NCBI GenBank assembly: GCA_964506075.1
Contig: CAZDKO010000005.1
Location: 1-62,527, forward strand
Length of the DNA: 62,527 nucleotides
DNA from: an uncultured bacterium
GTDB lineage: Bacteria > CAZDME01 > JAYEMH01
Direction: 5' to 3'
Shown: piece by piece, positions 8,601-38,868 of the stretch
How positions within the stretch are numbered: the stretch's first letter is position 1
Layout: each line of letters opens with the position of its first letter
Notes under the pieces: generated by a model
The model's database searches: none
Told to the model about the DNA's origin: nothing
Seen by the model: only the letters and a program-made list of their open reading frames with translations
Made by a program: the position numbers and the translations under genes

Positions 8601-9599
8601 TTAGTTTATTACCGGCTTGTTTTTTTCAAAAAAACAATTAATCATTTGTTTGCAATTCTTCCGGCAGGTTTTTATCTCATTCCTTACTTCCTCGGCCTTC
8701 TTCCCAAACCATATTTTATTTATATCTCCTTCTCTAATGTTACCGATGGGGTCCATTTCAAAGCAAAGATATATCCAGCCGTAGGAATCCACCGCAAAAG
8801 AATTATAGCCTAAATCACAACTATTTTTTAAAAACCGGTCAGGAAAAGAAAAATATGATTTAAAAATTTCAAATTGTCCGAACGGATTATCAATTTTATA
8901 CCCGTTTTTTTTCAATCTGGCCAAATCATCAATAACGGCCATGACTTGCTCAGGATTTCCGGGCCAGAGAAAGTTGAACTCGTCTTTTTTATACCAATTT
9001 TCATCCGGCGGACTAAAGAATGGCTGCATAAGCGCCTGGAAGTAAATTGAATGAATCCTCTTACGGCTATCAACCCATTTAACCAGGTCAACAAGGTCAT
9101 TTAAGTTTAAAGCCGATATGGTGGTGACGATGTGAATCCGGGGTAATTCGGAAGAAAGCTCGGTAAAATAATCAATAGCCTTTATTACTTTTTCATAGAC
9201 CCCTTCCACCCCTCTTAAATAATCATGGGTCTTTGAATTTAAACTATCCAGGGATAAAACTAAATTCTGAAGACCTGAGGTTACAAGTTCTCTCGCTTTT
9301 TCCCGGTTGATTAAAAATCCGCTCGTTGTCATCACCGGGAGAAAATTGTTTTCGGCCGTTACCCGGATAAGGTCTGTAATTCCTTTTTTCATCATCGGCT
9401 CTCCTCCAACCAAGAGAACTTCAGATTTTTCTCTGGCAAAATTCTTTAAAGAGTTAATAAAATCCATCCATCCCCGAGCCGGGATAGTGTCGGGGTCGTC
9501 ATTACACTTCCACATATGACACATTTTACATTTAAGCAGGCAATTTCTTAAGATTACTAAATGGCATTGAGACGGATATTTTTCTATTAGATTATCCAT
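8601..9599 (-). CDS. Radical SAM/twitch protein, array family member
   Basis: CLLKCKMCHMW, GGEP, SLDSL..HD.LRG, WY...LWP motif, and C-terminal C-x17-C...CRKNCKQMINC. Confidence 0.9.
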   Translation of the reverse strand: MDNLIEKYPSQCHLVILRNCLLKCKMCHMWKCNDDPDTIPARGWMDFINSLKNFAREKSEVLLVGGEPMMKKGITDLIRVTAENNFLPVMTTSGFLINREKARELVTSGLQNLVLSLDSLNSKTHDYLRGVEGVYEKVIKAIDYFTELSSELPRIHIVTTISALNLNDLVDLVKWVDSRKRIHSIYFQALMQPFFSPPDENWYKKDEFNFLWPGNPEQVMAVIDDLARLKKNGYKIDNPFGQFEIFKSYFSFPDRFLKNSCDLGYNSFAVDSYGWIYLCFEMDPIGNIREGDINKIWFGKKAEEVRNEIKTCRKNCKQMINCFFEKNKPVIN

Positions 9600-9643
9600 T
9601 ATTTCTTTTATTCAGGCGGACGTTTGTTCCCGAAAGTTTTAGA

Positions 9644-10693
9644 TTAGTTCATGATAAAAGGATAACTTTCCTCAAAAAAACAGTTAATCAGAAAATGACA
9701 ATTTTCTTTACAGCCCCTGATATTTTCCCGGATGGCACCGGCTTTCTCCGAAAGCCATAGAGTTCGGATGTCATCTTTTTGCTCTTTGATATTTCCCAGA
9801 CTTTTCCAGTTGTAACATAAAAAAATATCACCGACCGAACTGATGTGAATAGCCTGTTCAAGATTACAAGGGCCGCTTTTTACAAAACGGTCAGGAGCGC
9901 TTAAATATCTTTCAAAGGCCTCTAATTGAATGGGCTGATTCCCCACTAACTTTTGTTCAATCTGACTGTGCTTGATGATTTCATCAATAACGCTAACGGC
10001 TTTTTTCGTATCCTGCGGCCAGTATTGACTGAATTCTTTGGAGTTATACCAATGCTTATTTAATTCATCTTTACCGCAATAAGTATTATTCGGTTGCATC
10101 GGCACCTGAAAATTAATGGAACGGACCCGGGGGGAAATATTTTCTACCCATTCAAGCAGCTCAATGACTCCATCCAGGTTATCCTCCATAATTATGGTGG
10201 CAATGCCGATATGAAGACCGGGGTAATATTCGGCCAGATTATCTATCGCCTCCATTACCTTTTTATGGGCCCCTCTGACCCCGCGCCACCGGTCATGAAT
10301 CTCTTCATCCAGGCTGTCTAAAGAAAGAATGAGACTGAAAAGCCCTGAACGGGCTATTTCCTGAGCCGTTTTTTTATCGATTAAATAGCCGTTACTGGCG
10401 ACGGTTACTTTAAAACCGATATCAGCGCAATATCTGACAAAATCCCAGAGCCAATTCATAAGCAGAGGCTCGCCCCCGCCTATGTAAATCTCAAAATTTT
10501 CATCGACTAAATCCCTGATCTGAGAAGCGGCCCTCTTCCATTCTTCAAGCGTGGGTTTCGGTTTCCCGGAGGTGTGCTTGTCTTTCTTCCATTTGTCACA
10601 CATTTTGCAGCGTAAAATACAATCGTCTATTATCCCGAAACTGCAAAATTTTGGTTTAAGCGTCTGCCCTTTATCTGTTCCCTCTATTTTCAC
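9644..10693 (-). CDS. Radical SAM/twitch protein, array family member; close paralogue of 24459..25526
   Basis: CILRCKMCDKW, GGGEP and CKENCHFLINC. Confidence 0.9.
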   Translation of the reverse strand: MKIEGTDKGQTLKPKFCSFGIIDDCILRCKMCDKWKKDKHTSGKPKPTLEEWKRAASQIRDLVDENFEIYIGGGEPLLMNWLWDFVRYCADIGFKVTVASNGYLIDKKTAQEIARSGLFSLILSLDSLDEEIHDRWRGVRGAHKKVMEAIDNLAEYYPGLHIGIATIIMEDNLDGVIELLEWVENISPRVRSINFQVPMQPNNTYCGKDELNKHWYNSKEFSQYWPQDTKKAVSVIDEIIKHSQIEQKLVGNQPIQLEAFERYLSAPDRFVKSGPCNLEQAIHISSVGDIFLCYNWKSLGNIKEQKDDIRTLWLSEKAGAIRENIRGCKENCHFLINCFFEESYPFIMN

Positions 10694-11685
10694 TGATATT
10701 CTTCCTCATAAACACAATTAATTAAAAGCTCACAATTTTTCTTGCAATTATGCATTTTTTCTCTGACTGAATCGGCCCTGGCCGAATTCCATATTTCAGA
10801 AAAATTTTGATTCTTTATATTCGCTAAAGGCTCGTGTTTAAAACAAAGATATATTTGCCCTTTAACATCCAGAAAAATTGAAGAGTAACCTAAATTACAT
10901 TCTGTTTTTTTTATAAAATTCAAAGGGGTTTCAAAATAACTTTCAAAAACTTCCAGCTGGGAAGAAGAATTTATTATTTTATAGCCTTTCCTTTTTAAAG
11001 CCGCTATCTCTTTTAATACGCTTTTAAGCTGCGATATATCTTTAGGCCAGAGATAAGAAAAAGGGCTGTTTTTATACCAGAACTCGTCTGCCGGCGATTC
11101 ATAAGGCCGCATCAGGGCCAGAAGATTAATACCGTTAATTTTCTCATGATTGTTTACCCAATCTATCAAAGGGAAAAGACCATCCAAAGTCTGCTCTGAA
11201 ATAATAGCGTTGATACCTAAATAAACATCCGGATAAATTTTATTCAGAATCTCAATAGCCCTCATCACCCTGCTCCAGCTTCCAGTAACACCCCTTAAGA
11301 AATCATGCGTTTTCTCATCCAGACTATCCAGAGACAGGAAGATACTATTCAGACCGCTATCGTTCATTTGCCGAGACATATTTTCATCTAATAAATACGC
11401 ATTGGTATTTATTAAAGAAGAAAAACCGCAATGGCGAATAAATTTTACTATATCCAGGAAATCGCTTCTTAAAAGAGGTTCTCCGCCAATTAAATTAAAT
11501 AAAACCGGCTTATCACAGAAATCCTTCAACTGTAATATAAAATTTTTAATGGTGGCAGTGTCCATCGTTTCTTTAAAACGGCTTTGTGTTTCCCACATTC
11601 TGCACATTTTACATTTAAACGTACATTGCTGGGTAACGGTTAAAACACAAAAATTCGGTTTTTTAGATTGTCTTTCTATAATCAT
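10690..11685 (-). CDS. Radical SAM/twitch protein, array family member
   Basis: CTFKCKMCRMW, GGEP and CKKNCELLINC; ATGA-type overlaps with both neighbours. Confidence 0.9.
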   Translation of the reverse strand: MIIERQSKKPNFCVLTVTQQCTFKCKMCRMWETQSRFKETMDTATIKNFILQLKDFCDKPVLFNLIGGEPLLRSDFLDIVKFIRHCGFSSLINTNAYLLDENMSRQMNDSGLNSIFLSLDSLDEKTHDFLRGVTGSWSRVMRAIEILNKIYPDVYLGINAIISEQTLDGLFPLIDWVNNHEKINGINLLALMRPYESPADEFWYKNSPFSYLWPKDISQLKSVLKEIAALKRKGYKIINSSSQLEVFESYFETPLNFIKKTECNLGYSSIFLDVKGQIYLCFKHEPLANIKNQNFSEIWNSARADSVREKMHNCKKNCELLINCVYEEEYQ

Positions 11686-13247
11686 TTTATTTTTCCCGCT
11701 TGGAAAGCATCCTCTCCAAGAAATTTATATAAATTAATTTCTTTTAAATCCTGTATCATGGTCAACAAATTCTGATGATTATCGCAGTGGGTGCAATGTT
11801 CGTCATAAAGTTTCATCCCGTTTAAAAACTCAACGTCTTTATAATTTGACATAAATTTAGCTTCATATCGTCTTTGCCTGTAATAATCAGACTGCCAGAT
11901 TTCTTTAAATCGCTTTTCATCTAAATAACCTACCGTCCTGAGGTGGCAGCACATACTTATATCGCCTACCGCCGGAATTAAACAGAAACACCATCCAATA
12001 TGACAGCCTTCTTTTAAGAAAACGTCTTTAGACCACGAACCGGTGTCATTATCATAATTAGAAAGCTGGAATTTTATGTTGTCCACAAATTCTATCCCGG
12101 CTTTTTTAAAAATACCGGCTATAACCGGGAGGTCTCTCTGGATACTGGCAATTTGTTCATCGTTTAATTTTAAATGTCGGTTGTTTTTATCAAGCCTTAT
12201 AAGATAAAACCGGGCTGAATCTGTACCTATATAGACATCTAATTCGGCCATTTTTATAAGTTCGTCATAATTTAATTTGTGAATGACATGGGTCATCGTT
12301 AATATCGGCTGTCTCTTCGCTTTTTCCCTCTTTATGTCCATTAATCTTTTCATATTTTCAACGATAACGTTAAACCATTCCCCCTTCTTGGAATTCGGGC
12401 AGACTTCTTCATAAGTTTTTTCACTTCCGGCCGGTAAGGAACAATATATCTGACTGATGCCTAAGCCTATGACCTCCCGGGCAATTTTTTCATCAAGGAA
12501 ACATCCGTTGGTAAAAAAAAGAGATTTCATTTTTTTCTTTCTTACGTATCTTATCATCTCTAAAAAGTCAGGATGTAACAGGGGTTCTCCGTCTCCCTGA
12601 AGAATAATATCTTCGGCTTTAAGCTCGGCCGCATCATCCATAATTTCTTTAAATTTATCCAGCGTAATCTTTCTATCCAGGAATCCCGGGGCATGGTTAA
12701 TAACCGGATTATGAACAAAACAATGGACACAACCCACGTTGCATCGATGATAAGGGTCAAGCACGATTGTCTGGGGCCCGATAAAAGCCTCTTCACAAAC
12801 AACCCCTAATAACCGGGCAATTCGTTTTTCTTTGTGCGGATAATGGTAGGCCCGGTTACCGGCAATTTCCAGAATAAACCTTAAATCATCATCAATCAAT
12901 TTTAATTCCATATTTCCCAGACGGTTGCATAACCTCCTTAATTTTTCAATATACGTAAAGAAGTTACTGACAATATCACGCACCGGAAAAGCCTTAAATT
13001 CGTTATTTAATATCATTCTCTCTTCATCGCTGAGTTTCTTTTTTAAGAGAGCGGTAGCGAATTCAACGATTTTATTGAGTCTGAAAAAATTATATCTGGA
13101 AATACCGATAACCACTTTAACCCCTTTATTTTTAACCTGCGCTTCAATCAAGGTTATGGTATTACGGAAATCAGCTTGACTGGCAATACGATTATGTAAC
13201 TGGGCATAATCGCCGCATAATAAAATTTTTGAATCTAATCTACGCAT
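11682..13247 (-). CDS. Radical SAM/twitch protein with a ~150-aa N-terminal extension
   Basis: GPQTIVLD..HRCNVGCVHC, GDGEP, CHIGW...MCC...CTHCDN; same subfamily as the triple-rSAM domains. Confidence 0.85.
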   Translation of the reverse strand: MRRLDSKILLCGDYAQLHNRIASQADFRNTITLIEAQVKNKGVKVVIGISRYNFFRLNKIVEFATALLKKKLSDEERMILNNEFKAFPVRDIVSNFFTYIEKLRRLCNRLGNMELKLIDDDLRFILEIAGNRAYHYPHKEKRIARLLGVVCEEAFIGPQTIVLDPYHRCNVGCVHCFVHNPVINHAPGFLDRKITLDKFKEIMDDAAELKAEDIILQGDGEPLLHPDFLEMIRYVRKKKMKSLFFTNGCFLDEKIAREVIGLGISQIYCSLPAGSEKTYEEVCPNSKKGEWFNVIVENMKRLMDIKREKAKRQPILTMTHVIHKLNYDELIKMAELDVYIGTDSARFYLIRLDKNNRHLKLNDEQIASIQRDLPVIAGIFKKAGIEFVDNIKFQLSNYDNDTGSWSKDVFLKEGCHIGWCFCLIPAVGDISMCCHLRTVGYLDEKRFKEIWQSDYYRQRRYEAKFMSNYKDVEFLNGMKLYDEHCTHCDNHQNLLTMIQDLKEINLYKFLGEDAFQAGKIK

Positions 13248-13297
13248 TTTATAAAAAACCCTCTCTTTTTTTTATTTTATCTCAGTTTATCTGGCCG

Positions 13298-14323
13298 TCA
13301 CTGGCCATCTTCAAAATAACAGTTAACCAAGGGTCCGCAATATTTCTGACAGGACTCCATTTTCCTTCTTATCTCATTGGCTTCCCGGGAATACCAGAGG
13401 TCTCTCAGATTAACACCTTCTGCCCTGAGGTTACCCACCCTTCCGTAGATATGGCAAAGGTTAATATCGCCTAAAGGGCTGACGCTAAAAATATGTTTCC
13501 CTTTACGACATTTTACTTTTCGGTTAAATCCCTGAGGGTCCTGGAAATATAATTTAAAAGCTTCCAGTTGCCCAAGGGGGTTGGCAATTTTAAAACCCCT
13601 TTTTTTCAGCTCAATTAATCCGTCTATAACCGCATTCACTTCTTCGGTATTATCGGGCCAGAGACCCTTGAACTCATCCCGGAGATACCACTTGTTATCC
13701 GTAAACCAGCCATCGTCAGAACTGGAAAAATTAGGTTGAACGATAGCTTGAAAATACATATTTCCTATCCGGCGGTCACGCTCTCCCCACTCAGCCAATT
13801 CGATTATTTCGGCTAAATTATGTTTCATAATAATCGTCTGGAGACTTAAGCTGAAACCATCCACTCTAAATTTATCCAGGTAATCAATGGCTCTGAAGAC
13901 CTTTTTATACACACCCTCCACTCCTCTTATATAATCGTGAGTCTTCTCATCTAAACTATCCAGAGAAATACCCAGGCAATTCAAGCCCGAACCGGCTATT
14001 TCTCTGGCCAGGGTTTCATCTATTAAATAAGCGTTTGAAACCATTATGACCTTAAACCCCTGTCGGGCGGTAAACCGGATCAGGTCTAAAACCCCTTCTT
14101 TTAATAACGGCTCCCCGCCGGTAATATTTATCTCTATTTGCGTCCCCAGTTGTTCACGAAGGCGAACGATAAAATTTTTCCATTCATCAATGCTGAGTTC
14201 ATCGGGCGTACCTTTACATTTCCAATTCCCGCACATTTTACAGCGTAACATGCATTTTTCTAAAACCTCCAGGACACAAACCTGAGGATTTAAGAGGTCC
14301 TTGTTTTCCGATTTTCCTTTCAT
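13298..14323 (-). CDS. Radical SAM/twitch protein, array family member
   Basis: CMLRCKMCGNW, GGEP and CQKYCGPLVNC. Start moved to the ATG at 14323 (MKGKSEN), which has a GGAG RBS and follows the upstream stop at 14326. Confidence 0.9.
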   Translation of the reverse strand: MKGKSENKDLLNPQVCVLEVLEKCMLRCKMCGNWKCKGTPDELSIDEWKNFIVRLREQLGTQIEINITGGEPLLKEGVLDLIRFTARQGFKVIMVSNAYLIDETLAREIAGSGLNCLGISLDSLDEKTHDYIRGVEGVYKKVFRAIDYLDKFRVDGFSLSLQTIIMKHNLAEIIELAEWGERDRRIGNMYFQAIVQPNFSSSDDGWFTDNKWYLRDEFKGLWPDNTEEVNAVIDGLIELKKRGFKIANPLGQLEAFKLYFQDPQGFNRKVKCRKGKHIFSVSPLGDINLCHIYGRVGNLRAEGVNLRDLWYSREANEIRRKMESCQKYCGPLVNCYFEDGQ

Positions 14324-14325
14324 AC

Positions 14326-15297
14326 TCAGTCTCCATAGAAACAGTTTATCATCGGCTCGCAATTTCTCCGGCAGTGCTTTATTTCTTCTCTTACCTGTGC
14401 CGCTTTAGCACTACTCCAGATATTTTCAATAGTCTCGTTTTTAATGTTCCCAATTGGGTCCATGTTCCAGCAGAGATAAACATCGCCTCCGGAAGAAACA
14501 TTCAAAACAATCTCATCAAAATTACACCGGTCATCCCGGACGAACCTCCCGACGGGATTCTCAAAATACACCTTAAACATCTCCAGTTGAGAAACGGGGT
14601 TGGTAATTTTATACCCTTTCTTCTTGAGTAAAATCAACTGGTCAATTATTTCATGAACCCTTTCGGTCTCAGACGGCCATAAGAAACTGTATTCTTTCTG
14701 TCTATACCAGAATTTATCCGTCTCTGAACAGTGGGGCTGCATAATGGCCATAAAATTGATGGAGGCGATTTTTTCATTTTGATTGACCCAGTCGGCCAGC
14801 GGTAAAATATCACTCAAGTTTTCATTCATGATGATGGTTAAAATATCGGTTTTACACTCTGATTGGCATTGGTAAATATAGTCTACCGCCCCCATAACTT
14901 TTTTATAGACGCCTTTAACGCCGCGGATGGAATCGTGAGTCTCTTCTCTCAGACTATCTAAAGATATACCTAAAGTATTAAGGCCGGCTTTCGCGATCAT
15001 ACCGGCCACTTTCTGATTTATAAGAAAACCGCTACTAGGCATTGAGACCCGTAGCCCCTTCGTGCGAATAAAACTAATCAGTTCATAAATATAATCTTTC
15101 AATAATGGCTCTCCCCCTAGAATGTTAACCTCAATCGGGTAATCCAAAAATAAACTTAATTCTTCAATAAATTTCTTCCATTCCGGTAAACCGATTTCTT
15201 TTTCATTCCGGGGCACCTTCCACATAAAACACATCTTGCACCTTAAAGGACACTCAAAACCCAGAGAAATCATGCAATATTTTGGTTTTTTAAGCAT
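14326..15297 (-). CDS. Radical SAM/twitch protein, array family member
   Basis: CPLRCKMCFMW, GGEP and CRRNCEPMINC. Confidence 0.9.
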   Translation of the reverse strand: MLKKPKYCMISLGFECPLRCKMCFMWKVPRNEKEIGLPEWKKFIEELSLFLDYPIEVNILGGEPLLKDYIYELISFIRTKGLRVSMPSSGFLINQKVAGMIAKAGLNTLGISLDSLREETHDSIRGVKGVYKKVMGAVDYIYQCQSECKTDILTIIMNENLSDILPLADWVNQNEKIASINFMAIMQPHCSETDKFWYRQKEYSFLWPSETERVHEIIDQLILLKKKGYKITNPVSQLEMFKVYFENPVGRFVRDDRCNFDEIVLNVSSGGDVYLCWNMDPIGNIKNETIENIWSSAKAAQVREEIKHCRRNCEPMINCFYGD

Positions 15298-15312
15298 CGG
15301 CTTTATCCCTTT

Positions 15313-16401
15313 TTAAGATGAACTGAATAACTCATGGGTTTGTTTAAGTAAAGCCACAATATCCAGTTTCTGGGGACAGCGCGGTAAACATTGACCGCAC
15401 TCTATACAAGCATCGGCTCTCTTAAATTCATTCTGGTATTGTCTCCTGGCCCAGTCTTTAAGGCCATAAATTTTATAATAATTCAGATATTTTAAAACCC
15501 GCGGTATTTCAATGTTCTGGCTGCACGGACGGCAATAACCGCAATGATTGCAAAAACTATTGCCTAAAGATTTAAATTGTTTGACAATTTTATCGATTTC
15601 CTGCAGTTCCTGTTCTCTAAGTAAACCAATGTCCTCTCCGATAGAGGCATTCTCTTCAACTTCACTCACTCTCCCCATCCCGGAAAGAGCCGTGCATACA
15701 TATGGGTTTGAAATTACGAATCTAAGCCCAAGATGGGCTGTGGGAAAGGTAGCGTCTGCTAATCGCCTCTGTATTTCATCCGGCGGAGGTACTAACATTC
15801 CACCGGCCAAGGGATTCATAATGATCACCCCGATACCCATTTCACTGGCTTTTTGAATCAACTCTTCTTTTTCGCGGTTTAGCATATTATAGTGAACGGT
15901 TAAACATTCAAACACGCCCGGTTCCAGATACCGCCTAATGTTTTCGCTCGTATCGTGGCTGGTTATCCCGATATGGTCAATAAGACCTTCCTGCCGGGCC
16001 CTCTGGGCTCCTTCTAACGGTCCGCCTTTAGACATCATCACTTCAAATGTTCCCTGGTCATTTATCCCCCACATCTGATAGAAATCTATTTTTTCCACCC
16101 CCATTTTTTTTAATGCTTCATCTATAGCTCGTCTTACTCCGTCGGCGGTGCTGGTAAAATCGTGCTTGGGGTGAGATTTAGTGGAGATAAAAACTTTATC
16201 CCTGTTCCCTTTTATCCCTTTACCCAGAATCAGTTCACTCTGGTTATCGCAATATATATGAGAGGTCTCAAAAAAATTTATCCCTAATTCAATCGCCCGG
16301 CGGATATTTCCAACTGCATCTTCATTAAACCACTGCGTTCCGCCAAACCCGACTACCGAAAACATTTTTCCTGTCTTACCTAACGGCCGGTATTTCATCA
16401 A
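15313..16401 (-). CDS. Aldo/keto reductase with a C-terminal 2x[4Fe-4S] domain (COG1453-like)
   Basis: YRPLGKTG...GFGG, FFETSHIY, STK, GITSH and MNPLAGG (AKR barrel), then CNHCGYCRPC and CIECGQCLPRC. Confidence 0.88.
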   Translation of the reverse strand: MMKYRPLGKTGKMFSVVGFGGTQWFNEDAVGNIRRAIELGINFFETSHIYCDNQSELILGKGIKGNRDKVFISTKSHPKHDFTSTADGVRRAIDEALKKMGVEKIDFYQMWGINDQGTFEVMMSKGGPLEGAQRARQEGLIDHIGITSHDTSENIRRYLEPGVFECLTVHYNMLNREKEELIQKASEMGIGVIIMNPLAGGMLVPPPDEIQRRLADATFPTAHLGLRFVISNPYVCTALSGMGRVSEVEENASIGEDIGLLREQELQEIDKIVKQFKSLGNSFCNHCGYCRPCSQNIEIPRVLKYLNYYKIYGLKDWARRQYQNEFKRADACIECGQCLPRCPQKLDIVALLKQTHELFSSS

Positions 16402-17447: not shown

Positions 17448-17462
17448 TCTCCGTAATAATAA

Positions 17463-18500
17463 TTACTTTTCTTCTTCGTAATAGCAGTTTATAACCAGTT
17501 CACAATTCTTTTTACAGACCAACATTTGCTTTCTAATCCGGCCGGCTTCTTTGGAAAACCACCTCTCGGAAATATCATCTGTCCTGATATTTCCCAGTTT
17601 ATCCATAAAAAAACATATATACATATCTCCGATAGCGTTAACATTAACGGCGCGGTCGGAAAGGTTACACCGCTGTGACTTTACAAAAGCTTCAGGATTT
17701 TCAAAATATCTCTTGAAAATTTTAAACTGAGTGGTGGAATTCTCAATTTTATAGCCGGATTTTTTAAGATAAATTAATTTATCAATAACAAGATTGAGCC
17801 TCTCCAGATTCTCCGGCCATAAAAACTTATAGTCCTCTCTTTTATACCAGTCCCAGCTCAGGCTTGAACCAAAAGGCCTCATCACTGCCATAAAATATAT
17901 TGAATCAAGATATCTTTCCTGTTCCACCCATTCCGTAAGTTTAACGATATCCTCTAAATTAACCCCGGAAATAATGGTATTAATGCCTAACTTCATCCCT
18001 TTCTTCCCGATTTTATTAAAATACCCCAGTGCATCCATAACCCGCTGGAAACAGTCGTTTTTCCCCCTTAAAAAATCGTGGGTGGAAGGATTAAGACTTT
18101 CCAGAGATAAATTTAAATGACTGAGCCCGGAATCCACAATCGAGCGTGCCATTGATTCATCAATAGTATATCCGGAGCTGGTGATAACCGTTCTGGACCC
18201 TTTTTCTTTTATAAACTTCACCAGGTCTAATATGCCGTTTTTAATCAAGGTTTCTCCGCCGATAAGATGCACCTCTACGGGTTCAGAAGTAAATTTATTT
18301 AATGAATCTATAAATCTTTTACACTCTTCAATACTGATTTCATTTTCCAGTGTATCGAGTTTCCATAAATTACACATCTTGCAGCGCAGGATACAGCGGT
18401 TAGTGACGGTTAAAAGACAGGTTTTAGGCCTTCCCGGACCGGGTAAATTGTTGCTTTCCTTGGTATTTTGTTTAATAATCTCTTTTTGTTTTTTAAACAT
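17463..18500 (-). CDS. Radical SAM/twitch protein, array family member
   Basis: CILRCKMCNLW, GGET and CKKNCELVINC. The ATG at 18500 is preferred over the TTG at 18545, which overlaps the upstream gene; start uncertain. Confidence 0.88.
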   Translation of the reverse strand: MFKKQKEIIKQNTKESNNLPGPGRPKTCLLTVTNRCILRCKMCNLWKLDTLENEISIEECKRFIDSLNKFTSEPVEVHLIGGETLIKNGILDLVKFIKEKGSRTVITSSGYTIDESMARSIVDSGLSHLNLSLESLNPSTHDFLRGKNDCFQRVMDALGYFNKIGKKGMKLGINTIISGVNLEDIVKLTEWVEQERYLDSIYFMAVMRPFGSSLSWDWYKREDYKFLWPENLERLNLVIDKLIYLKKSGYKIENSTTQFKIFKRYFENPEAFVKSQRCNLSDRAVNVNAIGDMYICFFMDKLGNIRTDDISERWFSKEAGRIRKQMLVCKKNCELVINCYYEEEK

Positions 18501-18513
18501 ATCGTAAGGCGAT

Positions 18514-19548
18514 TTATCTGGCGATATAATCGGTAATATTTTCAATTTTATAAAAACAGTTAACCACGATATCGCAATCTTTATTACAACTGTTAATAGC
18601 CTCCTGGGCTTTCTGCATATCTTTAGAAAACCAGACTTCTGAAAATTTCCTTTCTCTTATATTAGCTATCGGCGGCATATAAAAACACATATTGATATCC
18701 CCATAGGCATTAATTTCCGGGGCTAAATCTCCGCGGGGGCACTTTACTTTACTGTCGTGAACAAACCGATACGGATTTCTGAAATACTCCTTTACCAATC
18801 TTAACTGTTCGGGAGGATTGCAAATTTTATATCCTTTTTCTTTAAGTAAAGCCAATTTCTCCAATATCTCACTTACCCTTTTGGTATTTTGCGGCCAGAC
18901 TTCATTATTATCCTTATTTTTATACCACTCTCTTTCGTAATTATCACAATCAAAAGGCTGTAAACAAGCGTTAAAAAATAAATCGTTTATTTTTTCATTG
19001 TTATTAACCCACTCGGTCAAAGAAAGAACTTCGTCCAGATTCTTTTCCATCAGAGTCATCGTTATTCCGATGCTGAGACGTTTTTCTTTATTATCTCCTC
19101 TATATTTATCCAGCCAATCAATCGCCTTCATAACCTGCCGATAACTGCCCTTGACTCCGCGGAGATAATCATGGGTTTCTTCCTTAAAACCATCCAGAGA
19201 AAGAAATATCCCGGTAAGACCCGACTCAACAATTTTTTGGGCCATCTCTTCGTCAATATAAAATCCGTTGGTGGTGATTGAACTGTTGAAGCCGCTTTGT
19301 TTAATATAAGAAACTATTTCCATTGAATCCTGCCTTAAAAAAACCTCCCCGCCAATTAAATGGATAAAAAGCGGCTCGGTAGTAACCTTCCTGAAATCGT
19401 CTATAAAATCTTTTATCTCCTCTATACTGAGCTCTTTTCTTTCCTGCGGTCTTTCAACATTTTTCCACATATTGCACATTTTACATCTAAAATTACATTG
19501 CTTTGAAATAACTAAAAGGCAGAAGGCCGGTTTCTTTACAGTTTCCAT
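18514..19548 (-). CDS. Radical SAM/twitch protein, array family member
   Basis: CNFRCKMCNMW, GGEV and CNKDCDIVVNC. The ATG at 19548 has a GGAG RBS (alternative ATG at 19563). Confidence 0.88.
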   Translation of the reverse strand: METVKKPAFCLLVISKQCNFRCKMCNMWKNVERPQERKELSIEEIKDFIDDFRKVTTEPLFIHLIGGEVFLRQDSMEIVSYIKQSGFNSSITTNGFYIDEEMAQKIVESGLTGIFLSLDGFKEETHDYLRGVKGSYRQVMKAIDWLDKYRGDNKEKRLSIGITMTLMEKNLDEVLSLTEWVNNNEKINDLFFNACLQPFDCDNYEREWYKNKDNNEVWPQNTKRVSEILEKLALLKEKGYKICNPPEQLRLVKEYFRNPYRFVHDSKVKCPRGDLAPEINAYGDINMCFYMPPIANIRERKFSEVWFSKDMQKAQEAINSCNKDCDIVVNCFYKIENITDYIAR

Positions 19549-19569
19549 TTTTACTCCAAGCATTATTCG

Positions 19570-21255
19570 TTATTTTAAATAAGGCGATATTAATTGGTCA
19601 CGATAAGCGCTTTTCTGGGTGGCAATATCACTAAAGATGGCTTTAATTTCATCTTTATGGTCATATCTGGAATACAAAAAAAATAGCAGATGTTCTTCCT
19701 CAAAATGAGGAAAGGTATTTTCTCCTGCATCCTTGATAACTTTATCGTAAGAATACAACATCTGCTTTTCTTTATCTTGCCAGCTAAGGCCGCCGTGTTC
19801 GTCAAAACCGTAATGGGTGTAAACTCTATTGTATGTAAATTCCTGTTTCAGGGGATACTGAGACAAATCAAAAATTTTTTCTATCCCGTAAAGGTTCGGG
19901 TTAGCAAAGAGTTTGCTCCCGAGTCTTAAATCAAAGACGTTATAGTAGATACGGTTAATATATTTCTTATTCCGGTTTAAAAAAGAAATGGTGCAATCAA
20001 TATCTTCTTCCTTTTCATGGGGGAACCCGCAAATTATTTCCAACCCGGTCCAGATACCGGCTTCATCCGTCCATTTTAAAATTTCTTCCAGTCTTTTCAC
20101 ATCCACCTTTTTATTTATGTATCTTAACAGCCGGGGACTGGCCGTTTCCATCCCGTAGATTAATCTGATACATCCGGCCCGGCGCATTTTAAAAAGTGTG
20201 TCTTGGTCAAAATAATCTATCCGGGCACAGTCACTCCAGAGTATGTCTAATTTATTCTTAATGATTTCGTCACATAGCTCGTTTATATACCTTTCCGAAA
20301 TGTTAAGAGTATCACTTAAAAAGAAGAAACCGGTAGGGTGATACTTCTCCTGGAGTTCTCTTAAACAAGAAACAACTTTTTGAGGCGACATAACATAGGT
20401 TAATTTATTTCCGGACTCACAACAAAATATACATTCAAAAGGGCAACCCCGGATAAATTTAAAAGGTAAAATTAAAGTCCCTGATTCATTAAAATCTTTT
20501 ATTATCTCTTTTACCTTTTCTTTACAATTAAAATTTATACCCCGGTATTTATATTTTTCTAAAGGCAGACCGGCAAAATCGGGCTTGACCAGTTCTTTAA
20601 CTTCTGCCTGTAATATTTTCCCGTCTTCCGAAAAATGCAATCTGGATATTTTCGATAAACTTTGCCCTGCCATTAAAATACTCAACAGTTCAAAAAGGAC
20701 AACTTCACCGGCTCCCTTAACCAGAAAGTCAATATTATCGCTTTTATACTTTGTACTTAATAAATCAATGGCCACACCAAAAGAACCGCCTATAATAATT
20801 ACCGGATGATATTTTTTCTTGAGGAATTTTACGAAACTTAAAGTAAACATTATATTGCTTTTATTCATAGTATTGCAATCAATAGAAAGCAGAATTATTT
20901 TATATCCGTCAAATCTGGATTTCTTAATTACTTTTTCCATATTCATATCTAAATATTTATCTTCGTCACCTTGGTAATATTTAACGATTCTTTCCTCATC
21001 AAAAAAAAGCGATTCGTCTATCTTCTCCTCGGGGTTATCCGAGTATTTGTTATCGTAGTGAACCTTAATATACAAATCATCCTGCTCAATATCGATACCT
21101 TTCTTTTTAAGATAAGAAACAATCTGTCCCAGCGCTAAAGGCGGCAGCAGCACACAGTTTAATTCCGTCGAATAAAGCTGGTGTTTCTCATAAAAAGAGG
21201 GAAGTTTAACAATCTTAATTTTGTCATTATTTATAGATGTAGTCAAACTATCCAC
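19570..21255 (-). CDS. B12-binding-type radical SAM protein (561 aa)
   Basis: PPLALGQIVSYLK, IIIGG, GAGE, RGCPFECIFC, FFLSDT, GMETAS and ICGFPHE. Confidence 0.8.
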   Translation of the reverse strand: MDSLTTSINNDKIKIVKLPSFYEKHQLYSTELNCVLLPPLALGQIVSYLKKKGIDIEQDDLYIKVHYDNKYSDNPEEKIDESLFFDEERIVKYYQGDEDKYLDMNMEKVIKKSRFDGYKIILLSIDCNTMNKSNIMFTLSFVKFLKKKYHPVIIIGGSFGVAIDLLSTKYKSDNIDFLVKGAGEVVLFELLSILMAGQSLSKISRLHFSEDGKILQAEVKELVKPDFAGLPLEKYKYRGINFNCKEKVKEIIKDFNESGTLILPFKFIRGCPFECIFCCESGNKLTYVMSPQKVVSCLRELQEKYHPTGFFFLSDTLNISERYINELCDEIIKNKLDILWSDCARIDYFDQDTLFKMRRAGCIRLIYGMETASPRLLRYINKKVDVKRLEEILKWTDEAGIWTGLEIICGFPHEKEEDIDCTISFLNRNKKYINRIYYNVFDLRLGSKLFANPNLYGIEKIFDLSQYPLKQEFTYNRVYTHYGFDEHGGLSWQDKEKQMLYSYDKVIKDAGENTFPHFEEEHLLFFLYSRYDHKDEIKAIFSDIATQKSAYRDQLISPYLK

Positions 21256-21283
21256 CGTGCTTTAAGAATAATCGATTATTTTA

Positions 21284-22318
21284 TTATTCGCCGTCTGATT
21301 TTGCTCTATCTAAAACCGAGTCTTCTACATTATAAGGATCGTTAACGCAGGTATCGCATTCTCTCTGGCAGTTGTTTATTTTACGTCTTATTTCAATTAC
21401 CCGGGGAGAATACCATAAATCTCTGATATTATCTTTCTTGACGTTCCCGAAAGGGTCCATATGCGGGCATAAAGAGATTTCCCCCGCCGGAGATACTTCA
21501 AAAGAAGCATCTCCCCTCGGACAATTCCCTTTAATGGCCGCTTTCTTTTTTATAAACCCGTAAGGATCCCGGAAATATCCTTTAAAGAGTTTAAGCTGAG
21601 CAACCGGATTATCTATCTTATACCCTTTCTGGGCCAAGCCAATCAATTCGTCAATAACTCCGTATAGTTTCGGCAAGTCTTCCGGCCAGATATCCCGGTG
21701 TTCTGACTTTTTATACCATTGACGGTCGGGTTCGGGCACGAAAGGCCTGACCACCGCGCAAAAGTATATTTTCCACAGTCTTTCGTCCCCGTTTACCCAT
21801 TCAGCCATCTTTACCAGTTCATCAAGGTTCACGTTTAAAATAATAGTATTGAGCCCGATACTCATCTTACTACGATACTTATGGAGCAAATCAATGGCCC
21901 TGATTAAGCGCTCAAAACTACCTTTGACCCCGGTCACGAAATCATGTGTTTCCTCCTTTAAACCGTGAAGCGATAAGATAATAGTGGTTAAACCGGAATC
22001 GCCTATTTTCCTGGCCATATCTTCATCGATGAGATAGGCATTAGTAATCAGCACCGTATTATATCCTTTTTGAGAGGCGAATTTGATTAACTCGCAGATT
22101 CCCTCTTTAATTAAAGGCTCCCCGCCCATAAAAACCAGCGGGATAGACTTCCCGACGAAATCTGCCAGCTCTCCTAAATATTTTTTCCATTCAGCAATAG
22201 TCATTTCATCCGGCTCTCTTTTAATCTGCCACATATTGCAGGTTTTACATTTAAACATGCAGCTTCTTAAAAGTGAAATCTCGCAGTGCTTTGGCCTATC
22301 GTTAACTTCAAGGTTCAA
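21284..22318 (-). CDS. Radical SAM/twitch protein, array family member (variant Cx3Cx2C tail)
   Basis: CMFKCKTCNMW, GGEP; ends CQRECDTCVND. Confidence 0.88.
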   Translation of the reverse strand: MNLEVNDRPKHCEISLLRSCMFKCKTCNMWQIKREPDEMTIAEWKKYLGELADFVGKSIPLVFMGGEPLIKEGICELIKFASQKGYNTVLITNAYLIDEDMARKIGDSGLTTIILSLHGLKEETHDFVTGVKGSFERLIRAIDLLHKYRSKMSIGLNTIILNVNLDELVKMAEWVNGDERLWKIYFCAVVRPFVPEPDRQWYKKSEHRDIWPEDLPKLYGVIDELIGLAQKGYKIDNPVAQLKLFKGYFRDPYGFIKKKAAIKGNCPRGDASFEVSPAGEISLCPHMDPFGNVKKDNIRDLWYSPRVIEIRRKINNCQRECDTCVNDPYNVEDSVLDRAKSDGE

Positions 22319-22375
22319 TATCCAAATCCTCCGATTAAGATTATGTTTCCTTTATTTTCAGGGAAAATAAAAATT

Positions 22376-23380
22376 TCAAATTTTAATTTTTTCATCTTCA
22401 TAAAAACAATTAATCATAATATGACAGTTCTTGCGGCAGTTATATACATCCTGCCTGATTTTTTGAGCCCTCGGGGAATTCCAGATTTCGGCTATATTAT
22501 CATTTTTTATGTTCCCGAGCGGCTCAATTAAAGTGCAGAAAAATATTTTACCGTAAGGGTCAATATGAAACTCATAATCCCCAAGATTACATTTAAGTTT
22601 TTTCAAAAAAGTGTTCGGGTCTTTAAAATATTCCTTAAAATGCAGAAAATGGTTGGGATGGTTTCCAATTTTATATCCGTTGAGTCTTAATTCTTTTATT
22701 TTATCCATAAGAGAGTTGACCTTCTGTATATCCTCGGGCCAGAGAAAACGGCTTTTTTCTTTATTAAACCACCAATCATCCCTGGCTTCACAGAGAGGCT
22801 GAGTGATGGCCTGGAAACTGATCATTTCGATTCTTTTATCGTGCTGGGCCCATTCAATTAATTCCAATATTTCATCAAGGTTAGGGCCCATTATAACGGT
22901 CAGAAGAGCAATTTTTAATTTTGCGCCTTGACGGGCTTTATCCAGATAATCAATAGCTTTCATTACTTTCTGATAACATCCGTTTAATCCCCGGATAAAA
23001 TCATGCGTTCCGGCTTTTATTCCGTCCAGCGAAATTGTTACGGTATCTAATCCGGAACGGACAATATCCCCGGCCGTTTTTTCATCAATCATAACCCCGT
23101 TAGTTACTAAATCGGTTTTATACCCTTCTTGAACAATAAAACTAACCAAATCTAAAACGTCTCCGGATAATAAAGGTTCCCCACCGGACAGGTGAAATTC
23201 AAAATCCGGTTTTACTAAATTTTTTAAAGATTTTACCAGCTGTTTTTTTTGCTCCAGCGTCGGTTCTAAAGATGAATCATAGCTCGTGTTCCAGATATAG
23301 CACATCTTACACCGTAACATACAACGGTAATTAATCACCCAGCAGCAATACCGAGGTTGAGAAGTATCTTTATCCATCAT
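22376..23380 (-). CDS. Radical SAM/twitch protein, array family member
   Basis: CMLRCKMCYIW, GGEP and CRKNCHIMINC. Confidence 0.9.
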   Translation of the reverse strand: MMDKDTSQPRYCCWVINYRCMLRCKMCYIWNTSYDSSLEPTLEQKKQLVKSLKNLVKPDFEFHLSGGEPLLSGDVLDLVSFIVQEGYKTDLVTNGVMIDEKTAGDIVRSGLDTVTISLDGIKAGTHDFIRGLNGCYQKVMKAIDYLDKARQGAKLKIALLTVIMGPNLDEILELIEWAQHDKRIEMISFQAITQPLCEARDDWWFNKEKSRFLWPEDIQKVNSLMDKIKELRLNGYKIGNHPNHFLHFKEYFKDPNTFLKKLKCNLGDYEFHIDPYGKIFFCTLIEPLGNIKNDNIAEIWNSPRAQKIRQDVYNCRKNCHIMINCFYEDEKIKI

Positions 23381-23389
23381 ATTTTAAAA

Positions 23390-24436
23390 TTATCTGTCTG
23401 CGGCGTATAAAGAGGGGTCATCTTCGATGTAACAGCAATTAAGCAGTAAATGACAATTGGTTTTACATTCGTTAATTTTTTTTCTTATTAAATCCGCATC
23501 CTGAGAACGCCATAACTCCCTGATATCATTTTCCCTGATATTGCCGATAAAGTCCTTAAAAAGACACAGCTGAATGAATCCGTAAGTATTCACACTTATG
23601 GCTCTGCCGCCGATAATACATTTAGCCTTATTAACAAATTTCTGGGGATTATTAAAATAGGCTTTATACGCCCGGAGATGTTCTTCCCTGTTACTGACCT
23701 TGGAACCGTTTTTCCGTAAAGAAATAAGCTCATCAATAACAGAAAGGAGCTTTTTAGTATCTTTCGGCCAAAGGTATTTATATTCGTCCAGCCAGTTATC
23801 GGTCAAAGGCCCGCTGTAATTGGGCTGAACCACCGACATAAAATAAAGCCAGTCGACTTTATCGTTTTTATCCGCCCAGTGCACCAGATTAACCAAATCG
23901 TTCATATTCTCATTCATAATGATACAGCAAAGGCCTTTTCTTGTCGCCGGTGAATATTTAGTGAGATTATCTAAAGCCGTCATCACTCTTTGATAAACAC
24001 CTTTGACCCCTCTCATTTTATCGTGAAGTTCAGGGTTAACACTGTCCAGAGATATACTGATAGCGTCTAACCCTGAATCAGCGATTCTTCTGGCCATATC
24101 GGCGTCAATAAGGTAACCGTTTGAAGCCATAATGGTCTTGAACCCCTGGTCTTTGGCAAATTTCACTATATCTAAAATCCCCGGGAGAGACAATACTTCC
24201 CCGCCGCCGAAATCAATTTCAAAATCTTTTTCTACCAGCTCTCTTAAGCCGGATATAAATTTTTTCCATTCGTCCAGCGTCGGCACTTCATCAGGGGAGG
24301 GAATTTTTTCCTGCCATTTATTGCACATTTTACAGCGCAGCATGCAATAATCTGTCGGAGCTATACAGCAGAATCTTGGTTTTAAACTTTCCCCCTCATC
24401 CTTATTAATTCTACTAACTTCACATAAATCGGCCAT
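23390..24436 (-). CDS. Radical SAM/twitch protein, array family member
   Basis: CMLRCKMCNKW, GGGE and CKTNCHLLLNCC. Confidence 0.9.
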   Translation of the reverse strand: MADLCEVSRINKDEGESLKPRFCCIAPTDYCMLRCKMCNKWQEKIPSPDEVPTLDEWKKFISGLRELVEKDFEIDFGGGEVLSLPGILDIVKFAKDQGFKTIMASNGYLIDADMARRIADSGLDAISISLDSVNPELHDKMRGVKGVYQRVMTALDNLTKYSPATRKGLCCIIMNENMNDLVNLVHWADKNDKVDWLYFMSVVQPNYSGPLTDNWLDEYKYLWPKDTKKLLSVIDELISLRKNGSKVSNREEHLRAYKAYFNNPQKFVNKAKCIIGGRAISVNTYGFIQLCLFKDFIGNIRENDIRELWRSQDADLIRKKINECKTNCHLLLNCCYIEDDPSLYAADR

Positions 24437-24458
24437 CTTTACACCTTTAAGTTTTCAT

Positions 24459-25526
24459 TCATGTTTTAAATATAAAAGGATAATCTCCTTCGAAAAAACA
24501 ATTGAGAAGAAAATGACAATTTTCCTTACACGTCCTGACTTTTTTTCTAACCGCCTCGGCTTTATCAGAAGTCCAGATTTTACGGATATCATCTTCTTTA
24601 TTTCTGATGTTGCCCAGACGGTCCCAGCTATAACAAAAGAAAATATCCCCTACGGAACTGATATGGAGCGCCCGGTCAAGATTACAGAGCCCGGTTTTGA
24701 CGAAACGGTCCGGTGCCTCCAGATAATTCTTGTACGCTTCCAGTTGAACAACGGTGTTCCCGATATTCTCCCCTCTTTTTCGCCGCCTGATGAGGCAGTC
24801 AATAATAGCATGGACTTTCTTTGTATCCTGAGGCCAGTAGAAACTAAATTGCCTGGATTTATACCAGTGTTTATTAAATCCATCTTTTCCCCAGTAAGTA
24901 TTATTCGGCTGCATCGGCACCATATAATAGGTGGATTTGAGGCGGGAATCCTGATTGACCCACTCCACCATATCAATGAGCCCGTCCAAAGTGCTGGCCA
25001 TAATAATCGTACAGATGCCGATATGAATATCCGGAGCGTATTTTGATACGTTGTCTATAGCCCGCATCACCCCTTTATATACACCTTTAACTCCCCGCCA
25101 GGAATCGTGGATATTCTCATCCAGACTATCTAAAGAGAAGACGATACTGGAAAGACCCGATTCGGCTATTCTTTTAGCCATCTTTTCATCAACCAGATAT
25201 CCGTTGCTGGCTATGGTCATTTTAAACCCGATATCCGTACAGTACCTGACAAAATCCCAGAGCCAATCGACTAAAAGGGCTTCCCCGCCGCCGATATCGA
25301 TTTCAAACCCTTCGTCGACTAAATCTCTAAGCTGAGATGCCGCCAGTTTCCATTCTTCAAGGGTGGGTTTTACTTTTCCGTAGGTATCCCTGTCCTTTTT
25401 CCACTTATCACACATCTGACAACGTAACATACAATCATCCGTTATTCCCAGACAACAGAATCCCGGCCTAATAATTCCATTTCCATTCTGGCTTGTTTTG
25501 TTACTTCTAAGTAAATATTCACTCAT
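24459..25526 (-). CDS. Radical SAM/twitch protein, array family member; close paralogue of 9644..10693
   Basis: CMLRCQMCDKW, GGGE and CKENCHFLLNC. The ATG at 25526 has a GAGG RBS (alternative ATG at 25538). Confidence 0.9.
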   Translation of the reverse strand: MSEYLLRSNKTSQNGNGIIRPGFCCLGITDDCMLRCQMCDKWKKDRDTYGKVKPTLEEWKLAASQLRDLVDEGFEIDIGGGEALLVDWLWDFVRYCTDIGFKMTIASNGYLVDEKMAKRIAESGLSSIVFSLDSLDENIHDSWRGVKGVYKGVMRAIDNVSKYAPDIHIGICTIIMASTLDGLIDMVEWVNQDSRLKSTYYMVPMQPNNTYWGKDGFNKHWYKSRQFSFYWPQDTKKVHAIIDCLIRRRKRGENIGNTVVQLEAYKNYLEAPDRFVKTGLCNLDRALHISSVGDIFFCYSWDRLGNIRNKEDDIRKIWTSDKAEAVRKKVRTCKENCHFLLNCFFEGDYPFIFKT

Positions 25527-25545
25527 AAATAACCTCATCCTTAAT

Positions 25546-38839: not shown

Positions 38840-38868
38840 ATTATAGAAAGATTTCCTGTCTTTGTCAA
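38840..38868 (-). promoter_or_regulatory. Consensus sigma70 promoter for the glycan/rSAM operon
   Basis: Minus-strand TTGACA (38868-38863), 17-bp spacer, TATAAT (38845-38840); ~40 bp upstream of the GT4 start. Confidence 0.8.

Follow-up and report, generated by a model that had tools for sequence, protein, structure and literature searches.

Between positions 8601 and 25538 of a 62,527 nt stretch of DNA from an uncultured bacterium (contig CAZDKO010000005.1, in the following called the window), twelve paralogous genes for radical S-adenosylmethionine (rSAM) enzymes of one family are arranged in an array. These paralogues are ancient duplicates, each of them maintained individually and under purifying selection, and it is highly probable that they have distinct functions. 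We propose, with a probability of roughly 0.55, that they are twelve non-redundant rSAM enzymes with a single auxiliary cluster each, which would tailor a lipid-linked glycan before its export by an ATP-binding cassette (ABC) transporter. The enzyme class as such is known. What is new is the family itself, the ordered arrangement of its many copies and the way in which it is embedded together with a Wzt-like protein that bears supersandwich domains.

All twelve copies, numbered along the direction of transcription (copy 1 at 24459–25538, copy 12 at 8601–9599; Table 1), are intact open reading frames (ORFs) of 323–360 aa on the minus strand. In a full-length alignment any two of them are 32–45% identical, with the single exception of copies 1 and 11 (63%), and 32 columns are invariant. 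Even the least similar pair is matched by BLASTP with E=1e-61 over 331 columns, and therefore chance similarity can be excluded. The Pfam domain Radical_SAM (PF04055) is recognised in 12 out of 12 copies (65–88 bits, cutoff 29.5) and SPASM, weakly, in 11 (22–41 bits). The three cysteines of the CxxxCxxC motif (C16, C20, C23) and the GGE motif are invariant, and the positions S112, H121 and G126 as well as the cysteines C258, C276, C309 and C313 are kept in every copy. Judged by this motif content, all twelve should be catalytically competent. The original prediction, made from the sequence of the window, had listed several shared signatures, most of which reappear in the alignment. The motif C-x-(L/F)-(R/K)-C-(K/Q)-(M/I/T)-C-x2-W is found in all copies, the W…WP insert likewise, here as W-x(8-10)-WP, and the segment KI.N…QL…YF..P is clearly visible. 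The S(L)D..(H)D..RG segment is also present throughout, in the observed form S-L-x-[SG]-x…HD..[RT]G, but it is not a signature of the family, since SkfB and BlsE have it too. Ten of the twelve copies do end in the five-cysteine tail C…C…C-x3-C-x5-C, yet the first two cysteines are spaced by 16–17 residues and not by 16 or 18 as had been stated; copies 4 and 7 are the exceptions. The octapeptide described as a core strand (YFQALMQP and others) differs in all twelve.

That the twelve copies form a single clade was claimed from the shared motifs and is now supported by profile scores and a tree. A family profile was built from the twelve window copies and scored on the window and on 23 fetched loci. 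Members of the family reach about 230–490 bits per domain, and every other rSAM stays at or below 133 bits. A second rSAM family has five domains in the window; they score 75–88 bits each, and the 1422 aa triple fusion sums to 202. A neighbour-joining tree of 161 members and five local rSAM outgroups supports the monophyly of the array family in all of 100 bootstraps. Thus, tree and profile both contradict the possibility that the copies group with different known families. Ten copies were scanned against NCBIfam and no model was matched at its cutoff: the best scores (78–105 bits, cutoffs 284–650) were obtained with AhbD, NirJ, GeoRSP, TIGR04053 and similar models, and for the equivalogs AhbD, NirJ1/2, GeoRSP rSAM, TIGR04053, anSME, MoaA, BlsE, DesII and Tes all ten stayed below the cutoffs. 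No close solved relative of the family was found in the PDB, neither by sequence nor by Foldseek. SkfB is the top sequence match there, with E=1e-8 for a single query sequence and 87 bits for a profile of 130 sequences; CteB, SuiB and PqqE come after it.

The family is large. Among 8,000 candidates scored in a database search, 399 proteins had E≤1e-10; where these relatives are named, they are called only 'radical SAM protein', and they come mostly from metagenome-assembled genomes (MAGs) of Candidatus Omnitrophica/Omnitrophota. A HMMER search against 1.84 billion cluster representatives yielded 1,882 matches at E≤1e-30, the best 150 of which all have at least 276 bits. The size of the family can be given accordingly as at least 150 clusters at 50% identity (≥276 bits) and at most 1,882 (E≤1e-30). 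Two- and three-domain fusions occur among the best 150 matches. In the literature searched we found no description of the family or of the array; the matches were generic surveys of biosynthetic gene clusters, lipids and giant proteins of Omnitrophota and two Xanthomonas papers. Proteins with two or three fused family domains were also observed in related loci, namely in L003 (8012–10963), L010 (12052–14220 and 17738–19849), L011 (15032–17134) and L020 (9013–11217), and in P0123 (1034 aa). Such fusions in other genomes hint at neighbouring paralogues working in physical contact. The idea that the fused two-domain members are the counterparts of the adjacent copies 8 and 9 had to be rejected, because the best-hit pattern shows no specific correspondence.

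Arrays of this family are found in other genomes as well. The search for related loci, for which one copy was aligned with its orthologues, returned 57 loci, about 36 of which contain unrelated rSAM genes (79–99 bits or less) and were discarded by profile score. Full-length family domains number 9 in L001, 10 each in L005 and L006, 11 each in L020 and L060, 12 each in L016 and L018, and 13 each in L010, L011 and L015. In L060 the 11 domains lie within 21 kb of a 1.26-Mb Omnitrophota contig. A typical array has an rSAM gene of the '751/3x' type at its head and B12-type rSAM genes interspersed, and it mostly ends with an orthologue of the 521 aa rSAM of the window (500–547 bits), usually followed by a GT1 gene. 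Copies 1 (together with 11), 2, 3, 5, 6 and 12 have reciprocal best hits in 7–9 out of 11 comparison arrays, at 44–77% identity, and the matching copies keep their relative order, i.e. they are collinear. In the tree they define six orthogroups (OGs) with bootstrap values of 95–100, each represented in 8–15 other arrays. L001/L002 contain orthologues of copies 8 and 9 (bootstrap 100), and for copies 4 and 10 no orthologue was detected in the sampled arrays. Mean identity is 51–71% within orthogroups versus 36% between them.

Selection was measured on the close pair L005 and L006, because the window is at most 77% identical to its nearest relatives at the amino acid level and its synonymous sites are saturated. 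For all ten copies compared the ratio of non-synonymous to synonymous substitutions (dN/dS) is 0.04–0.19, at dS 0.30–0.96. A recent tandem amplification for gene dosage, or a set of decaying redundant copies, would agree with tandem genes on one strand and with the 63% identity of copies 1 and 11. Against it stand the low identities of all other pairs, the orthologues elsewhere, which are closer than the paralogues within the window, the intact catalytic motifs of every copy and the low dN/dS values. We consider this explanation extremely improbable; dosage amplification is refuted by the orthogroup structure, which together with the dN/dS values excludes it, as the original prediction had maintained. 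For the younger pair formed by copies 1 and 11 a divergence of function is less certain.

The fold was modelled with AlphaFold2 for copy 8, using an alignment of 130 sequences (mean predicted local distance difference test, pLDDT, 96; predicted TM-score 0.93). The model predicts six beta/alpha units, followed by a C-terminal hairpin and helices. A long loop after beta-6 (residues 185–210) holds the invariant W197 and W207-P208, and the variable octapeptide maps to beta-6 itself (strand residues 179–184). The best full-length match in the PDB according to Foldseek is BlsE (TM 0.74/0.73, root mean square deviation 4.0 Å). SkfB, SuiB, anSME, MoaA, DesII, viperin, PqqE and BtrN come next, all at 13–18% identity. 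Five C-terminal cysteines, C258, C276, C309, C313 and C319, are conserved across the 161 members, and C258-x12-G271-x4-C276 is kept at 90% or more across them; C309 and C313 are invariant. A hairpin (264–267/272–274) is present in the model at this place. The signature C-x12-G-x4-C of such a hairpin is common to SPASM and twitch domains. The seven cysteines of a SPASM domain were not found: the block C-x2-C-x5-C-x3-C and the seventh cysteine are absent, and the second block reads C-x3-C-x5-C. What characterises a twitch domain is there, a hairpin flanked by C-x(9-15)-G-x4-C with cysteines downstream, and residues 253–327 of the family profile align to the twitch region of BtrN. The assignment as twitch in the original prediction is upheld by the five cysteines, the hairpin signature and the profile match. 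The most economical reading of the sequence would be one auxiliary Fe-S cluster per enzyme.

We screened for positions that are conserved within each of the six orthogroups and different between them, and obtained 33, five under strict (14, 25, 60, 153, 314) and 28 under relaxed settings. They lie in beta-1 (9, 11, 14), directly behind the cluster loop (25), beside GGE where beta-2 ends (56–60), in beta-3 (85, 87), beta-4 (108), beta-5 (153) and beta-6 (183, 186), and also in the hairpin and cluster region (254–281, 306–320). The octapeptide region of beta-6 is itself orthogroup-specific, for instance N-A-C-L-Q-P-F-D-C in OG5 and F-M-v-V-V-Q-P-N-Y-S-P in OG2. The pocket for SAM and substrate is formed, in solved rSAM/twitch enzymes, by barrel strands and C-terminal hairpin. 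The location of orthogroup-specific residues on the modelled barrel strands and hairpin supports a divergent specificity. Considering the conserved orthogroups together with these residues, each copy most likely acts on a different target. The claim that the copies have diverged for different roles is therefore well supported, by orthogroups, dN/dS and orthogroup-specific positions alike. The further suggestion of a combinatorial tailoring set was not borne out: conserved gene order and content look like a fixed multi-step pathway with lineage-specific additions rather than combinatorial use.

The array is embedded in a long operon. Over about 38.8 kb to the left edge of the window all non-nested genes of at least 100 aa are located on the minus strand, with gaps of less than 60 nt or overlaps (Table 1). 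It holds 19 rSAM domains of three families within about 29.5 kb, the twelve paralogues being interrupted by three other genes, for the 521 aa rSAM, the aldo-keto reductase with Fe-S domain and the 561 aa B12-type rSAM. The components of a Wzm/Wzt-type pathway, ABC2_membrane, ABC_tran, Glycos_transf_4 and GT1, were found together in this one locus. Among 70 non-rSAM neighbour ORFs from 19 related loci the most frequent are SGNH/GDSL proteins (16), GT1 glycosyltransferases (14), tetratricopeptide repeat (TPR) proteins (about 11), PMT_2 (6) and GT2 (5); L001 has in addition a carbamoyltransferase and a GH5 enzyme. In the whole window no Rfam family was matched, hence there is no SAM or cobalamin riboswitch ahead of the operon. 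Within 73–38799 there is no non-overlapping small ORF and thus no candidate gene for a precursor peptide. Because the CxxxCxxC motif starts at residue 16–50 and is close to the N-terminus in all copies, they have no N-terminal recognition element (RRE) or other peptide-recognition domain of the kind known from RiPPs (peptides that are made by the ribosome and modified post-translationally). The lack of such a domain and of a free small ORF disfavours a RiPP system.

Table 1. Genes and candidate promoter of the operon, in the order of transcription
Feature	Position	Strand	Remarks
Candidate operon promoter	38840..38868	-	TTGACA-17-TATAAT, 12/12 sigma-70 consensus, pattern match only; 40 nt upstream of first gene
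GT1-family (GT-B) glycosyltransferase	37669..38799	-	First gene of operon
WecA/MraY-family polyprenyl-phosphate sugar-1-phosphate transferase	36641..37642	-	Glycos_transf_4; WecA-like at 84 bits, below equivalog cutoff
FAD-dependent amine-oxidase / UDP-galactopyranose-mutase-like protein	35346..36635	-	
ABC-2 type permease, Wzm-like	34573..35349	-	ABC2_membrane
Wzt-like ABC ATPase	29580..34571	-	1663 aa; six tandem predicted beta-supersandwich domains and probable coiled-coil repeat
751 aa rSAM	27341..29596	-	N-terminal predicted beta-supersandwich and second-family rSAM/SPASM; type precedes arrays in related loci
Polytopic membrane protein	25546..27327	-	593 aa; weakly PMT_2/GT-C-like, below Pfam cutoff; paralogue of 6801..8588
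Paralogue 1	24459..25538	-	359 aa, rSAM and twitch-like tail; OG1, bootstrap 100
Paralogue 2	23390..24436	-	348 aa; OG2; orthologues elsewhere 69–77% identical
Paralogue 3	22376..23380	-	334 aa; OG3
Paralogue 4	21284..22318	-	344 aa; no clear orthologue in sampled arrays; tail C-x3-C-x2-C
B12-type (class B-like) rSAM	19570..21255	-	561 aa; between copies 4 and 5; homologues recur inside related arrays
Paralogue 5	18514..19563	-	349 aa; OG5; orthologues 71–77% identical
Paralogue 6	17463..18545	-	360 aa; OG6
Paralogue 7	16398..17447	-	349 aa; without fifth (last) Cys; reciprocal best hit in L001, 63%
Aldo-keto reductase and 2x[4Fe-4S] ferredoxin domain	15313..16401	-	Between copies 7 and 8; also within L001/L002 array
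Paralogue 8	14326..15297	-	323 aa; AlphaFold2 model (pLDDT 96); orthologues 65–69% identical
Paralogue 9	13298..14362	-	354 aa; orthologue in L001/L002, bootstrap 100
Second-family rSAM/SPASM	11682..13247	-	521 aa; between copies 9 and 10
Paralogue 10	10690..11685	-	331 aa; no clear orthologue in sampled arrays
Paralogue 11	9644..10693	-	349 aa; OG1; younger duplicate of paralogue 1, 63% identity
Paralogue 12	8601..9599	-	332 aa; OG12, bootstrap 95
Polytopic membrane protein	6801..8588	-	595 aa; weakly PMT_2/GT-C-like
HpnJ-like B12-domain rSAM	4328..6760	-	810 aa; N-terminal predicted beta-supersandwich
Triple rSAM/SPASM fusion, second family	73..4341	-	1422 aa

Some further features of the operon should be mentioned. 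The perfect sigma-70 consensus at 38840–38868 is unusual for a low-GC uncultivated lineage and would be useful in heterologous expression. The array is flanked on either side by one of two paralogous polytopic membrane proteins (about 595 aa each); both have sub-threshold similarity to PMT_2 and no NCBIfam match, and a third, clearer PMT_2 protein (PMT_2+TPR) is encoded at 46228–48027 on the plus strand. In the 1422 aa fusion three complete rSAM/SPASM domains are joined, which belong to one family with the 521 aa and 751 aa proteins, and its single-domain homologues (429–521 bits) head the arrays in L005, L006, L010 and L015.

A domain of about 220 aa connects the exporter with two of the rSAM enzymes. 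The Wzt-like ATPase carries six copies of it in its C-terminal extension, and the 810 aa and the 751 aa rSAM, which were matched by phmmer with E=6e-62 and 7e-63, each have one at the N-terminus. In Pfam this domain has no match, nor does the Wzt-like protein beyond its ATPase; Wzt_C was not recognised. A word-based database search found two homologues. The model derived from these and the eight window copies (pLDDT 88) predicts an all-beta supersandwich, with the galactose-mutarotase-like domains of GH36, GH2, GH63, GH38 and GH116, polysaccharide lyases, OpgG and galactose mutarotase as neighbours in the PDB, at TMq 0.40–0.61 and with the P1 domain of YidC also among them. In O-antigen export (E. 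coli O9a) the carbohydrate-binding module of Wzt recognises the finished chain. By analogy, we infer that the exporter and the two tailoring rSAM enzymes may recognise the same glycan via the shared domain. Between the fourth and the fifth supersandwich copy the Wzt-like protein has a charged, heptad-like repeat (residues ~1120–1200, …RLEAERLEKQRRLEAERLEKQRRLEAERLEKRRK…), which is probably a coiled-coil spacer.

According to the mechanism proposed here, each paralogue would be a cytoplasmic enzyme made of a single (beta/alpha)6 AdoMet-radical core and a short twitch-like end, the five cysteines of which could hold one cluster. SAM would be cleaved by the N-terminal cluster to yield the 5'-deoxyadenosyl radical, this radical would attack a C-H bond of the substrate and take over its hydrogen atom, and the auxiliary cluster might accept or return the electron by which the substrate radical is resolved, as in BtrN or anSME. 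An oxidation, an epimerisation or a related change could be the outcome, and our confidence in any particular chemistry is low. The paralogues would share one substrate, and most likely each of them would work on another position, residue or intermediate of it. This substrate may be a polyprenyl-phosphate-linked glycan, assembled at the cytoplasmic face by the WecA-like initiator and the GT1 enzyme, tailored in the cytoplasm by the 19 rSAM domains of three families, and exported via the giant Wzt together with Wzm, after which the GT-C-like membrane proteins would handle it outside. The shared supersandwich domain would let tailoring enzymes and exporter bind the same polymer. From gene neighbourhood and fold match, we judge the chances that the substrate is a glycan to be about even. 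More tentatively, the array may represent an undescribed kind of pathway, an extensive and ordered editing of a lipid-linked glycan by rSAM enzymes before ABC export. It is conceivable that at least six (here twelve) twitch-type enzymes, together with B12-type and multi-domain rSAM enzymes, would then each serve one defined C-H position; epimerisation, oxidation, deoxygenation, C-methylation or C-C/ether cross-links could be their products.

Several points weigh against the tailoring of a glycan by twelve distinct enzymes. None of the family's members has been studied so far, and the assignment of the glycan rests on gene neighbourhood and one moderate fold match (TM 0.45–0.61, YidC P1 included). 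For a complex glycan it is odd that only two or three cytoplasmic glycosyltransferases stand beside the 19 rSAM domains. A lipid or glycolipid substrate would also agree with the SGNH 'lipase' neighbours, with the FAD desaturase-like protein and with the HpnJ-like enzyme. Twelve distinct roles are not required, given that no orthologues were detected for copies 4 and 10 and that copy 11 arose by a younger duplication. A count of five cysteines does not prove a single cluster, and the variable residues are placed in the pocket from secondary structure alone. Furthermore, Wzm/Wzt were not clearly found beside most other arrays (10-kb flanks). L061, the closest relative by LigA, has the GT1-WecA-FAD head but no Wzm/Wzt at that position. 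When L061 (17030–22016) is compared with the window (29580–38799), two GDSL/SGNH genes are seen in place of Wzm and the giant Wzt; therefore the export part of the locus is variable.

Instead of modifying a lipid-linked polymer, the enzymes could use soluble precursors or a single small scaffold as substrate, such as nucleotide sugars, a cyclitol or an aminoglycoside-like secondary metabolite. The array would then be a linear pathway of several steps, leading to one unusual sugar or a few of them that are transferred afterwards. The closest full-length folds, BlsE, DesII, viperin, MoaA and BtrN, belong to enzymes acting on nucleotide or nucleoside sugars or cyclitols; the small number of glycosyltransferases for so many rSAM domains and the fixed order of the orthogroups point in the same direction. 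Yet none of these folds exceeds the 13–18% identity given above and peptide-modifying enzymes appear at equal rank among them, and one large common ligand more easily explains a supersandwich domain on two rSAM enzymes and on the exporter ATPase. We regard soluble precursors as unlikely, though as the strongest competitor of a lipid-linked glycan. Somewhat less probable still is a lipid substrate, either a lipid as such or the lipid moiety of a glycolipid, for example a polyprenol, a hopanoid-like or a membrane-spanning lipid, on which C-C bonds, rings or methyl-branch rearrangements would be introduced at different carbons, as by GDGT-MAS/Tes, HpnH and HpnJ. The 810 aa enzyme is most similar to HpnJ (246 bits, cutoff 578), another B12-type rSAM matches the model 'lipid biosynthesis B12-binding/rSAM', GDGT-MAS appears among both sequence and fold matches, GDSL/SGNH proteins are the commonest neighbours and an FAD amine-oxidase/desaturase-like gene belongs to the operon. 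However, genes for the synthesis of fatty acids, isoprenoids or glycerol lipids are absent from the operon and the sampled flanks, the similarity to Tes/GDGT-MAS is generic (43–77 bits), SGNH proteins are also common as O-acyl enzymes of polysaccharides, and GT1, GT2, PMT_2, WecA and Wzm/Wzt indicate sugar.

The paralogues might finally be maturases of proteins or peptides, RiPP-type or for enzymes or surface proteins, each with its own target. SkfB as best sequence match in the PDB (87 bits with the profile), ahead of CteB, SuiB and PqqE, would be in line with this, as would generic NCBIfam matches to peptide maturases and the fusion of some homologues to TPR domains. But neither a recognition domain in the paralogues nor a precursor ORF in the 38.7-kb operon was found, genes for a protease or for leader-peptide export are missing as well, and all NCBIfam maturase models are matched 4–10 fold below their cutoffs. 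This makes maturation of peptides or proteins improbable, clearly more so than a lipid substrate.

Comparison with known systems places the family close to, and outside of, several of them. BtrN, the 2-deoxy-scyllo-inosamine dehydrogenase of butirosin biosynthesis, is the founding twitch rSAM enzyme. Like the paralogues it is a small single-domain rSAM enzyme without RRE, with a C-terminal hairpin flanked by two cysteines and with further cysteines downstream, which in BtrN serve one auxiliary [4Fe-4S] cluster; it was matched by Foldseek, and it takes a carbohydrate-type substrate, as we propose for the family. The two are only about 14% identical (TMq 0.51), the family has C-x3-C-x5-C where BtrN has C-x2-C, and the W…WP loop as well as the helix with N233, Y244 and P248 are specific to the array family. 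BtrN is a single gene of an aminoglycoside cluster, in contrast to the 12-copy array here. The best full-length structural match, BlsE, is a cytosylglucuronate decarboxylase; together with DesII, a TDP-sugar deaminase/dehydrogenase, it abstracts hydrogen from the sugar ring of a nucleoside or nucleotide sugar. Both are 15–16% identical to the family, their NCBIfam models give about 52–54 bits against cutoffs of 400–450, and they do not form paralogous arrays. The SPASM enzymes anSME, SkfB, CteB, SuiB, PqqE and AhbD/NirJ share GGEP, SxD..HD..RG and C-x(9-15)-G-x4-C with the array family, but have seven cysteines for two auxiliary clusters where the family has five, and the family lacks an RRE.

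With Wzm/Wzt export systems the operon shares an ABC-2 permease, an ATPase with a non-catalytic C-terminal extension, a WecA-like initiator and glycosyltransferases. Here the extension consists of six supersandwich copies of about 220 aa and not of Wzt_C, and the same domain is also found on two rSAM enzymes; no Wzt-type system with a comparable rSAM set is described in the literature searched. The hopanoid side-chain pathway of HpnJ and HpnH is alike in combining rSAM enzymes with glycosyl transfer on a lipid-anchored substrate. Unlike that pathway, the window has no squalene-hopene cyclase or other hpn genes, and beyond the rSAM core the twelve paralogues are unrelated to HpnH/HpnJ.

The remainder of the window gives some information on the host. 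Its LigA (41187–43190, minus strand) is closest to that of a Candidatus Ratteibacteria MAG (72%), and annotated members of the rSAM family come almost exclusively from Omnitrophota MAGs, with a few copies in MAGs labelled Planctomycetia, Margulisiibacteriota or Patescibacteria. Because of this LigA, placing the window in Omnitrophota on the strength of its family matches was rejected as unproven. This mismatch may mean that the family is shared between lineages or that bins are mislabelled. In the syntenic relative L061 the order PFK-LigA-DUF72-IMPase-GT1-WecA-FAD is kept, followed by the two GDSL genes and a 751-type rSAM. On the minus strand of 48896–62263 a module resembling group-4 membrane-bound [NiFe] hydrogenases and Mrp antiporters is located, followed by homologues of HycI and HypA. 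It comprises large, small and 30-kDa subunits, a NuoH-like protein and Mrp subunits, with FAD/NAD and Fe-S subunits and a Rex-type regulator upstream; the segment from the 608 aa Mrp/antiporter-like gene to HypA is conserved in L061. A group-4 NiFe hydrogenase of the Mbh/Mrp type together with Rex fits a strict anaerobe, suited to oxygen-sensitive rSAM chemistry.

Twitch and SPASM rSAM enzymes are, to our knowledge, among the main sources of new enzyme chemistry, and nearly all of those we know to be characterised act singly. The substrates of the characterised ones are mostly peptides, cofactors or small sugars. In the present case a large family without a studied member forms ordered arrays, each with about ten to thirteen distinct enzymes maintained by selection, and the phyla concerned have almost no cultured members. 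If the substrate is indeed a glycan, the arrays would stand for a new mode of polysaccharide diversification in anaerobes and would provide a set of position-specific, C-H-functionalising enzymes. If, furthermore, a lipid-linked glycan is edited in order along the array, this would parallel, on carbohydrates, the heavy rSAM modification of peptides such as the polytheonamides, and it would be a hallmark of the cell envelope in anaerobes of the Omnitrophota/Ratteibacteria type. Whatever the substrate, the six conserved orthogroups are a defined entry point for the study of this family, and the supersandwich domain offers a handle on its ligand.

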